A stretch of 63,831 bases of DNA, counting the filler, from Reclinomonas americana ATCC 50394 (Eukaryota), in the NCBI GenBank assembly GCA_048213135.1. It is 4 parts of 4 records of this genome, joined end to end, with 100 filler letters (N's around TTAATTAATTAA, not from the genome) between each part and the next. Parts side by side here need not be neighbours in the genome. Positions count along the whole stretch, not along the records: positions 1 to 23,907 come from PS016031.1; positions 24,008 to 50,225 come from AFZH01016498.1; positions 50,326 to 56,576 come from PS016036.1; positions 56,677 to 63,831 come from PS016039.1. The stretch is one strand, 5' to 3'. A program made the position numbers and the translations under genes. The notes below the pieces were generated by a model that made no database searches, was not told where the DNA came from, and saw only the letters and a list, made by a program, of their open reading frames with translations. Positions 10,937-63,831 of the stretch are shown here, piece after piece. Within the stretch, counting starts at the first letter, position 1. The number at the start of each line of letters is the position of its first letter.

Positions 10937-13131
10937 CTAACGTGTGGTAAAGCAAGAGAGCGAGGCAGTGTGGTATGCAGGTGTGCATGTCAAAGCAAAA
11001 GAGCAGTATCACGCTGGCGTGAGAAAGCAGACAACTACGTGTGAGCTGCCGGGCAGGCAAACCTTTGGTTTCGCCACCGTGACGCGCCGGAAAAACATGT
11101 TGAGCTGCGCGTACAGGTAGCCAATGTCGCGTCCGCGGAACACCTTGGCCACGAAGGAGCCGCCCGGACGTAGCACAAAGGTGGTGATGTTGAGGGCGGC
11201 CAGGATGAGCTGCGACTGCATGTACTCGTCGAGGTCGTGGAGGCCGGTGACTGGGGAATGGGAGTATGAGGGAGGAGCGTGGGAAAGGGAGGATGAGAGG
11301 AGAACAGATGATGCAAGAGGTGTGAAGAGAAAGGAAAGGCTGACGATGAAAGGGAGTGGAGGAGACAGTGCTTCATCCGCTCCACACAAACTCACCATCC
11401 GGCGCCCCATCGCACACCACCAGGTCGGCCTTGTGACCGTCGAAATGCGCAATGATCTGCGACGCCGTCTCCTCTTGCGTAATGTCTCCCTGCAGTTGAA
11501 TGACGCCATCCAGCGGAGCCATCTCCTGCAAGTCGACGGCGACAATCACAGTGTCCCTGCGCGAGAGTGGGAAGCGGAAGTGAGTGACAGGAGAGAGGGA
11601 AGGGTAGAGAGAAGGGGAGGGGACAGAGAAGAGTTCATCTGGTCAGCTAGTGGTGTGAAGAGATGCGACAGTCATGTTTCGCTCAAAAGAAGCTCTTGAT
11701 CAACGTCGTACATGGGCATGGCACGGACAATGAGTCTCCGAGTGAAAGCAGGATACCAGGCTTGGCCTCTCCTATGAACACGTCGCAAAAGAAGCACACT
11801 TCAAGAGCAACGCAGCACAAACACTCGAGAGCGACGAGAACGCACAGTTTCATGCACAGCACAAACAACAACCACGCACACTCAAGGATGACACGAGCAA
11901 CGAGAATAAGTGCGTAAAGAGCATCGGGAAGATGCATCACTCGGCACGAGCAGAGAGTGAAGCATGCGAAGAGCATGTGACTTCCATGAACAGAAGAGAC
12001 ACAGCAAAGAGCGATGCGCGTGAAGTGCATGCGACCTACTCAGGAGGCTGCATGCTCAAGGTTCGAGACACAGCAGAGAGTGAAGCTCGAGAAGCGCATG
12101 TGACACACTCAGGAGGCTGCATGCTCTCGCTATCCTGACACAACAGCCAGTGGAAGCGCGAGACTACCTCCGGAGAATGCATGCTCTCATGTTCGACACA
12201 CAGCAAAGAGTGAAGAATGAAGAGTGTGTGACCTACTCCGGCGGTTGAAAGCTCTCAGACTCGAGACACAGCAAAAGAGTGAAGCATGTGAAGAGCAAGT
12301 GACTGCCTTGGGCGAATGTATGCTCAAGGTTCGAGACACAGCAAAAGAGTGAAGCACGTGAAGATTATGAACTGCAAGGGAGGATGCATGCTCTCACTAT
12401 CCTGACACAGCAGAGAGTGGAAGCGCGAGACTACCTCGGGAGGATGCATGCTCTCAAAGCTCCCACAATGTCCACACTGCAAACGACAAGTGACAAGCTG
12501 GGATCCCGAGCATGCTCCCGTCCTCGCACAGCAACCGAGCACGAGCAACTACGTTACCACCTGCACCTCATAATACTCCCTTCTCCCTCTCCTCACTCCC
12601 TCCCCTCTCTCGCAACTCCGCCGACGCCGGTCTCTGCGCCTCGGGCACATCCAGATGATACAACTGTCGCTGCAACACCTGCGACCACGAGCCCGGCGCC
12701 GCACACAAGTCCACTGCACGACGCACGCCCTCAAACAAGTGGAATTCCTCGTTCACTTGCTACACAAAACGAGAGAGATGAGCATGACGAGGAGCGCGGA
12801 GAGTGACAAGGAGCTCACCAGCAGCTTGTATGCACTGCGCGCTCGCCACCCTTCTTGCTTGGCAAGCCGATAGAACTTGTCTGTGAGAGTAGTCAAGGCG
12901 ACGGATAAAGCGGCACCTAAGTCGTCGCCTAAGTGCGCCTATCCTCACATGCACACTCAGTCTTCACACTCTTGTTCTCTGTGTGCCTCTCTCTCTCTCT
13001 CTCTCACATGCACACACTCGCACACACTCACACACACTCTCACACACACACACTCTTTTACACACTCTTTCACACACTCTTCTCTCTCCTTCCTCTCACT
13101 CACCTCGCTTATCCTTTGTGGTTCGACCCAT
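9311..13131 (-). CDS. TRM7: tRNA (C32/N34)-2'-O-methyltransferase, FtsJ family (3' end approximate; one intron spans a gap)
   Basis: [100 protein letters not shown] and VPFLACGDL match FTSJ1/Trm7. Confidence 0.95.
9942..10766. other. Assembly gap (further gaps at ~23908-24007, 50226-50325, 53321-53922 and 56577-56676)
   Basis: N runs. The 100-bp gaps carry a central TTAATTAATTAA spacer. Confidence 0.99.
11930..12460. repeat. Degenerate ~60-bp minisatellite in TRM7 intron 3
   Basis: Recurrent gagacacagca(a)agagtgaagc...ctcaggaggctgcatgctc units. Confidence 0.8.
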
Positions 13132-13201
13132 GCCACACTGAGCAAACAACAACAAAAACGCGACCAAATCATGTCCTGTCAGCACTCTCTTTCTCTCACA
13201 C

Positions 13202-13700
13202 ATGGACGCGCAAAGCACACAGCGCACCACAGGCACTCTTGCGCTACTTGTGGTCATACTCCTCGCATTACAAGCCGCAGGTGAGAGAAGAGAGAGAGAG
13301 AAGAGAAGAGAGAGTGTGTGAGAGACAGACGTGTGTGAGTGTCTTTCTCACCTCTTTCTTGCTCATTCACTCACTCACTCTCTCACTCACTCACTCACTC
13401 ACTCACTCACTCACTCACTCACTCACTCACTCACTCACTCACTGCACTTACTCACACTCTCTTCTCTCTCTCTCACTCACTGCACTCACTCACTCACTCA
13501 TTCACTCACTCACTCCCTCCCTCCCTCCCTCCCTCACTCACTCACTCACTCCTTCACTCACTCCCTCCCTCCCTCCCTCCCTCCCTCCCTCACTCACTCA
13601 CTCACTCCTTCACTCACTCCTTCACTCACTCCTTCACTCACTCCTTCGCTCACTCCTTCACTCACTCCTTCACTCACTCACTCACTCACTCCTTCACTCA

Positions 13701-63400: not shown

Positions 63401-63695
63401 GTTCCCCGCTCCCTCCTCCTTCTCCTTCTCCCTCCTCCACCCCCACAGGCGAGGTCCGCTGGATCGACCTGCCGACTTCGAAGTGGGACGGCCGCGATGC
63501 ATTCGAATTCGAGTGCCGCACCGTGCACCGCCCGCCGGATGACTCGCCCCCGCAGCGCATCAACATGCGCTTCCGCTGCTGCCTGGTCAACGACCGCGAC
63601 AACAAGGAGCACGTCATTTACTTCCAGTTTGCCGCCGTGGACTCCACGTGGGAGAGTCTGCTGCCGGAGATGACGGCGATCTTTGACTCGGCCAA
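60480..63695 (+). CDS. Membrane-anchored protein with three tandem PsbP/Mog1/DcrB-like domains (partial; continues past the window end)
   Basis: N-terminal hydrophobic anchor (VLGVAAVATVGYVVISSLL). Three repeats begin WKRYVNEAAGFELDYPRLW, WTYEDPEFPFRIVFPAVF and FTFNTPIRGVQLTLPSVW, each ending in an amphipathic helix. Introns are phase-consistent. Confidence 0.65.
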
Positions 63696-63831
63696 GTTGC
63701 GTGAACATACACTCCCTCTTTCCTTCTCCCCTCTCCCTCTCCCTCTTTCCTTCTCCCTCTCCCTCTCCCTCTCCCTCTCCCTCTCCCTCTCCCTCTCCCA
63801 CTTTTCCCTGACGATGATATCGCTTCGTGTT

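Follow-up and report, generated by a model that had tools for sequence, protein, structure and literature searches.

A candidate second class of 5′ splice site, GTTGCG, in nuclear DNA of Reclinomonas americana

A stretch of Reclinomonas americana DNA 63.8 kilobases (kb) long, referred to in the following as the window, raises a question about how its introns are recognized. An initial annotation had assigned 18 introns a donor starting with GTTGCG and had read this donor as the normal 5′ splice site displaced by one base. Do these sites form a class of their own, and if so, how would they be read? All 18 positions do begin with GTTGCG on the strand given, and the base before the intron (−1) is A at 15 of them, C at two, T at one and G at none, as had been claimed. 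The sites are spread over eight genes, which we identified from Pfam matches and from our own reading of the translations: an FtsJ/Trm7-like gene, an L-type lectin gene, LMF1, a coiled-coil gene, an S8+PA subtilase gene, a UBL3/MUB-like gene, an MT-A70 gene and an unknown gene.

GTTGCG as a class of donor

The hexamer GTTGCG occurs 57 times on the two strands of the whole window, preceded by A in 28 cases. In 100 dinucleotide-preserving shuffles of the sequence, AGTTGCG was expected 11.14 ± 2.91 times and no shuffle reached 28. No enrichment was found in the window for GTTGCG preceded by C, G or T (29 copies vs 31.65 ± 6.44 in the shuffles). The excess of about 17 copies of AGTTGCG is close to the number of A-preceded sites that were taken as donors (15–16).

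The window was also parsed with a gene finder that was blind to the donor, its donor knowledge being limited to GT. Viterbi decoding combined an exon model of period three with an intron model and a matrix for acceptors; from the second round onward, the first 8 nucleotides (nt) of each intron were excluded from training of the intron model. The commonest donor of this finder was GTTGCG, which started 8 of its 70 introns, yet makes up 57 of the 7520 GT sites. The finder was then given a donor matrix derived from 29 normal donors, to which an equal bonus was added for a single hexamer per run. With the bonus on GTTGCG, 13 of its 57 copies served as donors and the total score rose by 91.9 nats; each of 17 control hexamers was used 0–4 times, with gains of 0–19.3 nats. 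In the best model, obtained with the hexamer bonus, 14 of 85 introns (16%) start with GTTGCG, although the model is incomplete and some real introns were evidently missed.

Support for the 18 sites is uneven. Three are fixed to the base triplet by homology (19405, 57833 and 58813), ten are indicated by reading frame, motif or the donor-blind model, some of them with in-phase alternatives (12616, 14917, 15704, 15890, 30708, 42174, 42324, 44210, 45201 and 48524), and five are weak (20797, 29056, 46022, 63349 and 63696). Splicing preserves the reading frame at each of the 17 sites for which an acceptor was found, several of which have alternatives, and all three junctions that could be compared with homologues are colinear with them.

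The first of these three is a 61-nt intron of the LMF1 gene (19345..19405, minus strand), with donor CAA|GTTGCGTC and acceptor CCGCAG, which was also the choice of the donor-blind finder. Splicing gives SIVQVGQ|TFYGFGWEAM, which aligns without a gap to the near-invariant VGQxFYGxGWE of 14 homologues and agrees with the VGQ|TFY junction expected in the initial annotation. If the intron is left unspliced, the frame meets a TAG codon. The in-phase alternatives, a GTGGGC at 19414 (9 nt upstream) or a GC 3 nt downstream, would lose VGQ or add a residue.

The other two lie in the MT-A70 gene, four exons of which match the protein chain 7f4r_A separately, with adjoining ends. At the 57-nt intron 57777..57833 (minus strand; CGA|GTTGCGGT), the upstream exon ends in SWGYE and reaches residues 101–102 of 7f4r_A, and LVDVVTWAK follows from residue 102, so that the two are colinear. 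A rival donor, GTTTTC, lies 6 nt downstream and was preferred by the donor-blind finder; it would add two residues. At the 64-nt intron 58750..58813 (minus strand; GGA|GTTGCGAT), DPPWNLSSQNPTRG ends at residue 52, V corresponds to residue 53 and TIAYSTLSD runs from residue 54, without a gap. This intron is purine-rich and has a low composition score (rank 9), and the evidence for it comes from homology alone.

In their 3′ halves, the class introns could not be told from normal ones. They are between 47 and 1060 nt long, and the sequence that they have in common is limited to the first 7–8 bases. All 17 with an acceptor end in CAG (14) or TAG (3), as most normal introns also do. Within 45 nt of the 3′ end, a CTNAY motif was present in 15 of 19 introns of the class vs 42 of 50 normal introns, the distance from the branch A to the 3′ end had a median of 18 nt in both groups, and the pyrimidine fraction before the 3′ end was 0.69 in the class vs 0.68 in normal introns. 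Because of this likeness, the class introns appear to be of the major GT-AG type, differing at the donor only. A family of introners or transposon-derived introns was considered separately and rejected: an all-against-all blastn comparison of 17 of the introns gave five hit lines, representing three pairs, over 19–45 nt of low-complexity, CT-rich sequence.

Judged from the DNA and its homologues, GTTGCG is a genuine second class of major-type GT-AG donor in this window. The discrete and frequent class described at the outset is borne out by the homology-fixed junctions, by the excess over shuffled sequence and by the contrast between GTTGCG and the other hexamers in the bonus test.

Register of the donor and its possible reading

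U1 small nuclear RNA (snRNA) reads textbook 5′ splice sites in one register. The consensus of normal donors in the window is (G)AG|GTG(A/C)G(T/C), and that of the class is (G)A|GTTGCG(T). G stands at −1 in 28 of the 29 normal donors and in none of the 18 class sites (Fisher p = 4e-12). The class has A at −1 in 15 of 18 sites and G at −2 in 8 of 18, and normal donors have A at −2 in 14 of 29. T is found at +7 in 11 of the 18 class sites and at +6 in 14 of the 29 normal donors. If one string is slid by one base along the other, they differ solely at the normal +1 G, where the class has T. The proposal that GTTGCG is the normal donor displaced by one base therefore holds for the flanks, which fit the slid consensus at −1 and +7; a simple displacement on ordinary U1 is not supported, as ordinary U1 pairs weakly with the class and GTTGAG, the other donor to be expected, is not enriched.

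For the mechanism we lean, if only slightly, towards a second type of donor, (G)A|GUUGCG(U), carried by GT-AG introns of the major spliceosome, about 15% of the total, and recognized through pairing with an snRNA that would be offset by one base. In such a duplex, A(−1) and G(+1) would stand in for the A and G at the end of a normal exon and would face, within the 5′ end of a U1-type snRNA, U10 and C9. UGCGU (+3 to +7) would then occupy the places of normal +2 to +6, and the cut would fall at the sole available GU, one base upstream of the position set by the paired register. In human, a shifted register in which +1G pairs with C9 of U1 and the cut stays at the GU is described in PMC4856993 as experimentally established for a few sites. 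Since standard U1 pairs too weakly and C is required at +5 of the motif, the pairing partner in R. americana would most likely be either a U1-type variant whose 5′ end has changed to complement the motif, or standard U1 that a protein factor keeps in position.

Several points weigh against this proposal. Minimum-energy, nearest-neighbour duplexes were calculated with the standard U1 5′ end, taken from a table in PMC4856993, from which the host's own U1 may differ. The mean over the 18 class sites was −1.72 kcal/mol vs −8.04 kcal/mol for the 29 normal donors; three of the 18 duplexes adopted the shifted register, with +1G on C9, one the normal register, and 14 paired elsewhere or were nearly unpaired. 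GTTGAG, which would be a better shifted partner of standard U1, showed no enrichment as a donor in the window, being used at 2 of 39 occurrences vs 13 of 57 for GTTGCG. The ratio of GTGAG to GTGCG among normal donors is 19:14, and that of GTTGAG to GTTGCG is 2:14 (p = 0.005); C at +5 is thus insisted on, for which standard U1/U6 pairing gives no explanation. At −2, the class (G at 8 sites, A at 5, C at 4 and T at 1) bears no clear likeness to −3 of normal donors. Among the 18 sites, five are weak and may be wrong, and one of these, 46022, has a simpler normal alternative. All junction calls are based on DNA sequence and protein homology, the gene finder was both built for and trained on this window, starting from the lectin gene and a few exons with Pfam matches, and the 29 normal donors were chosen by hand where homology or frame indicated them, which makes them a biased sample. 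The sample is also a single window. The weak pairing of standard U1, together with the unused GTTGAG, makes a variant U1/U6 or a protein factor, as suggested in the initial annotation, a more likely basis of the class.

A stronger form of the displaced-register proposal is that two U1-type systems would operate in parallel, the second with an snRNA, or another U1 5′ end, that complements AGUUGCGU, pairs with a one-base offset and serves about one-sixth of the introns. We put this forward tentatively and regard it as rather improbable.

Another way to explain the extra U is that it loops out at +2/+3 of an otherwise normal GUGCGU donor, leaving U1, U6 and the cut site as they normally are. GCGU at +4 to +7 of the class does equal +3 to +6 of this common normal donor. 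The bulge +2/+3 register (Roca et al. 2012; Tan et al. 2016, PMC4856993) likewise has an extra U beside the GU in what is otherwise a normal donor, and it has been validated, with 68 of 201,541 human sites predicted to use it (Table 3 of PMC4856993). This register keeps the normal −1 preference, whereas the class excludes G at −1. A bulged register keeps −1 opposite C9, so that G would be expected, and it was seen at 0 of 18 sites vs 28 of 29 normal donors. Moreover, +1G lies on C8 in one of the 18 minimum-energy duplexes, and a bulge leaves the non-use of GUUGAG unexplained. We therefore consider a bulged U unlikely.

Doubtful to a similar degree is recognition mostly independent of U1 pairing, in which AGUUGCG would be bound by a protein, or at a later step by U5 loop 1 and U6, and the likeness to a slid donor would be incidental. 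The very weak pairing with standard U1 in all registers speaks for such a reading, as does the rigidity of the motif over about eight positions, among them +5, where standard snRNA pairing does not account for the C. It would make the slid pattern at −1 and +7 a coincidence, and no candidate factor was seen in the window.

Could the class instead be an artefact of annotation, most of the hexamers not being donors and the real junctions lying at a nearby GT or GC, for instance at a GC-AG intron starting 3 nt downstream (GTT|GCG)? At most sites the GC 3 nt downstream scores about the same as the listed donor, in-phase alternatives exist at 15704, 42324, 45201, 57833 and 63349, and 46022 has the simpler normal model mentioned above. 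At all three sites tested by homology, however, GC or other readings add or remove conserved residues; the GC reading adds one residue relative to the homologues at each of 19405, 57833 and 58813. Chance fails to account for 28 copies of AGTTGCG where 11 are expected, or for the contrast with the 17 control hexamers. By our own estimate, from the 39 unlisted copies in about 124 kb over the two strands, about 1.5 copies would fall in phase near the approximately 117 introns by chance. We regard an artefact as very unlikely.

The U12-type intron class is reported to be greatly expanded in a slime mould. A minor-spliceosome class whose 5′ motif had drifted to GUUGCG is the least credible reading. 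Like U12-type introns, the class is in the minority, has a rigid 5′ motif and coexists with normal introns. U12-type introns are marked by RTATCCTT at the 5′ end and a TCCTTRAY branch site 10–15 nt from the 3′ end, but here there is neither a U12 5′ motif nor a U12 branch site (RTATCC at 0 of 18 sites; CCTTRAY in 0 of 19 class introns and 0 of 50 normal ones), and in CTNAY spacing, pyrimidine tract and length, as in their 3′ halves generally, the class introns are the same as normal ones.

The closest known counterparts of a displaced register are the human shifted-register sites, which are also GU-AG, have all U1 pairs moved by one with +1G facing C9, are cut at the GU and carry a U after it (PMC4856993, PMC9311317). 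As presented in PMC4856993, they are a handful of exceptions with long A/U-rich pairing beyond the mismatch, such as ACA/GUCAAGUAUA at −6.5 kcal/mol. In the R. americana class, by comparison, the motif is fixed and GC-rich, accounts for about 15% of introns and pairs with standard U1 at about −1.7 kcal/mol, and the version containing A is avoided. Non-standard registers of all kinds are together predicted at 5.1% of 201,541 human sites (PMC4856993).

Other systems share single features with the class. The left- and right-handed donors distinguished by LUC7 (PMC11842720) and the U5- and U6-biased sites (PMC11732430) are likewise two separable donor populations served by one spliceosome with the aid of factors. 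What varies in these two cases, as far as the accounts in PMC11842720 and PMC11732430 extend, is the strong side of an undisplaced consensus, and they feature neither a one-base shift nor T at +3. Human variant U1 snRNAs (vU1) have altered 5′ ends able to read non-standard donors, although their part in splicing natural sites is described as still uncertain (PMC3561869, PMC10870369). The donors of diplonemids, given as (G)/GTATG in PMC12621601, are unlike those found here. The open-access literature that we searched, which did not extend to any genome paper on this organism, held no report of a donor class of the GTTGCG or GUUGCG type. What would be new here is a donor read in a non-standard register that appears to have been raised from a rare exception to a routine class.

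If this is true, a single displaced motif would serve perhaps thousands of introns, where the known displaced or bulged registers are few human sites, individually studied. The class would offer a natural test bed for the choice of cut site when GU and U1 pairing differ by one base, and would allow tests of whether U6 moves along with U1 to the displaced register and whether snRNA variants can open a new donor class. Should there be a second U1, it would amount to a natural, genome-wide, reprogrammed guide to 5′ splice sites within the major spliceosome. Gene predictors trained on G|GTRNG would mis-splice about one in six introns and shift the frame in many genes, including the eight affected in the window.

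The individual introns and their genes

In addition to the junction at 19405, a 250-nt intron of LMF1 (20548..20797, minus strand; CCA|GTTGCGTT) was placed after a 39-nt 5′ mini-exon bearing the ATG. This weak site is in frame and ranked first among 32 alternatives, with a score of about zero; the region is unconserved, and the site was used with the hexamer bonus only. The LMF1 alignment also fixes two other donors with T at +3, both on the minus strand: GGT|GTTTCG at 18628 (NHFVELVV|PFGLL) and AAG|GTTTGCGCG at 19041 (MLGAGLIK|IRGDQCWRDLTCM), in the latter of which TTGCG begins two bases in. T at +3 is therefore permitted beyond GTTGCG. Four 63-nt introns on the minus strand, at 43311–43373, 19252–19314, 19066–19128 and 18979–19041, are a multiple of three in length and free of stops in frame, which allows silent read-through, and were recognized as introns by homology; at least the one at 43311–43373 was overlooked in every run of the gene finder.

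The MT-A70 gene (57355–59022, minus strand) matched two chains labelled 'MT-a70 family protein', 7f4r_A and 7f4l_C, far better than METTL3 (for one exon, E = 3e-5 vs 0.65). We take these chains to be the ciliate DNA N6-adenine methyltransferase MTA1. The MTA1-like gene hints that the organism may methylate adenine in its DNA.

Three class introns on the plus strand lie in the L-type lectin gene, where they keep the frame across recognizable L-type lectin motifs; a homologue search with the lectin open reading frame found none. The first, of 599 nt (14917..15515; TAA|GTTGCGTG), was chosen by the donor-blind finder. The Pfam lectin match extends to residue 66 of the 67-residue upstream exon, and the frame is kept across the junction (YFDSHSNMN-N-HETWGG). 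The second, of 58 nt (15704..15761; TGA|GTTGCGCT), also keeps the frame and was also a donor-blind choice; its alternative, an in-phase GTACGT at 15722, 18 nt downstream, would leave an intron of 40 nt. The third, of 65 nt (15890..15954; GCC|GTTGCGTT), ranked first among five frame-keeping alternatives and joins INLDA to IFGPAVANVYAGLTSSTG, the last exon corresponding to positions 210–234 of Lectin_legB.

The FtsJ/Trm7-like gene has the longest class intron, with 1060 nt filled with repeats (11557..12616, minus strand; GGA|GTTGCGAG). It joins the conserved N-terminal part, ending in RPASAE, in frame to an exon that matches positions 48–102 of Pfam FtsJ. The joined region varies in length, and the exact base lies beyond the reach of homology. 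The two longest GTTGCG introns, this one and that at 44419–45201 (both minus strand), consist of tandem repeats of about 60–75 nt, with units unlike each other.

In the coiled-coil gene, a 65-nt intron (30708..30772, plus strand; TTC|GTTGCGGA) connects an upstream frame that stops at 30779 to a downstream exon in a different frame. The site at 30708 is the sole in-phase GT for the CAG acceptor at 30772; the other options use a GAG acceptor at 30774 and give introns of 35–56 nt. The frame analysis agrees with the earlier argument that this donor is needed because the nearby GTGCGT (30730) is out of phase. A possible 75-nt intron at 29056..29130 (plus strand; CGA|GTTGCGCG) is pyrimidine-rich and ends in TAG. 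This stretch is a multiple of three in length and stop-free, so that an intron is not required by the frame, and the site, which ranked tenth of 38, is a weak one.

The UBL3/MUB-like gene is a small four-exon gene with a ubiquitin fold (48130–48682, plus strand), which the gene finder failed to predict. Its class intron, of 59 nt (48524..48582, plus strand; CCA|GTTGCGTT), ranked first among 24 alternatives and has the only in-phase GT. Unspliced, the frame ends after 15 codons, and when spliced, the product ends in KGCCALL*. Presumably, this is a CAAX-type end and the product is a prenylated, membrane-anchored protein of the UBL3/MUB type.

Four class introns on the minus strand of the subtilase gene keep the frame and fall within variable regions. 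The 70-nt intron 42255..42324 (ACA|GTTGCGTG) directly follows the catalytic-histidine motif HGSHVSGS; it ranked first among 28 alternatives and was the donor-blind choice, although 83 homologues did not separate it from three other in-frame choices (scores of 147.6 vs 147.5, 147.1 and 146.7). The intron at 42128..42174 (GGA|GTTGCGTG) was also a donor-blind choice and is 47 nt long, or 56 nt with an acceptor at 42119; its acceptor is uncertain, a CTAAC lying 4 or 13 nt ahead of the two candidate AGs. In the propeptide region, a 65-nt intron (44146..44210; CAA|GTTGCGCC) was both the donor-blind choice and the best GT option. The fourth, of 783 nt and containing tandem repeats (44419..45201; CGA|GTTGCGTC), was used only with the hexamer bonus. 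It joins AAQVLALWR-E-NPNLVQWAGDYAIEH in frame, giving a propeptide-like sequence, and an in-phase alternative, GTGTGT, lies 12 nt downstream.

A fifth subtilase intron, of 480 nt after the signal peptide (45543..46022, minus strand; CAT|GTTGCGTT), is doubtful, its donor ranking seventh of 28. The initial annotation held that the signal peptide demanded this donor; this was not upheld, as a simpler model, with ACA|GTGAGA at 46003 spliced to an acceptor at 45543 or 45375, runs in frame into the propeptide and puts one normal intron in place of two unusual ones. The second of these, a GTTACG intron at 45377–45446 (minus strand) that follows the one at 46022, becomes needless if the first intron starts at 46003; the intervening sequence, 45543–45447, is C-rich and intron-like.

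Both sites in the unknown gene, on the plus strand, are weak. A possible 100-nt intron (63349..63448; AGA|GTTGCGTG) keeps the frame and has a rival in an in-phase GTGCCA at 63376, with a marginally higher score. The possible donor at 63696 (63696..63831; CAA|GTTGCGTG) is followed by CT-rich sequence to the end of the window, with no acceptor before that end. The switch from coding-like to CT-rich sequence is abrupt here, and the site has the top transition score among the 57 GTTGCG sites.

Two further candidates, both counted among the 14 GTTGCG introns of the best model, had not been listed before. One is a 68-nt intron (2234..2301, minus strand; GGC|GTTGCGTG), chosen by the donor-blind finder in a gene without a Pfam match. 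The other (61786..62264, plus strand; GAA|GTTGCGTA) was used with the bonus; the donor-blind finder took an in-phase GTGGCT 18 nt downstream.

The window and its gene models

The window has a G+C content of 54–58% over most of its length and is eukaryotic nuclear DNA, gene-dense and with numerous short introns. On the sense strand, introns are C+T-rich (A 0.12, C 0.38, G 0.15, T 0.35) and exons are G+C-rich; because of the C+T-rich introns, the G+C and A+T skews switch with gene orientation. The malate dehydrogenase encoded in the window has a top match of 66% identity among 5.8 billion proteins, and its best named match, at 59%, is from Naegleria gruberi.

The donor-blind finder was noisy, two of the five donors in the malate dehydrogenase gene being wrong as judged by homologues. 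Self-training of a donor model on its output was uninformative: a position weight matrix run ended close to, and a hexamer-table run exactly at, the noisy 70-intron solution. A score for the exon-to-intron transition that used composition only was rejected for its low power, since its top 5% held 7 of 57 GTTGCG and 9 of 88 GTGAGC sites and its best hexamers were CT-rich strings from within introns. An Rfam search of the window, at the gathering score and at E ≤ 1, found no spliceosomal snRNA; it gave 52 sub-threshold matches, mainly to models of the microRNA type, and those that were placed fall on low-complexity sequence.

The count of GTGAGT (160) is inflated by (GTGAGT)n microsatellites, 23 copies lying in one repeated 14-mer context. 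The segments at 23908–24007, 50226–50325 and 56577–56676 each consist of 44 N, TTAATTAATTAA and 44 N and are linkers with stops in six frames; masked RNA genes were ruled out for them. Plain gaps in the sequence appear as longer runs of N, at 9942–10766 and 53321–53922.

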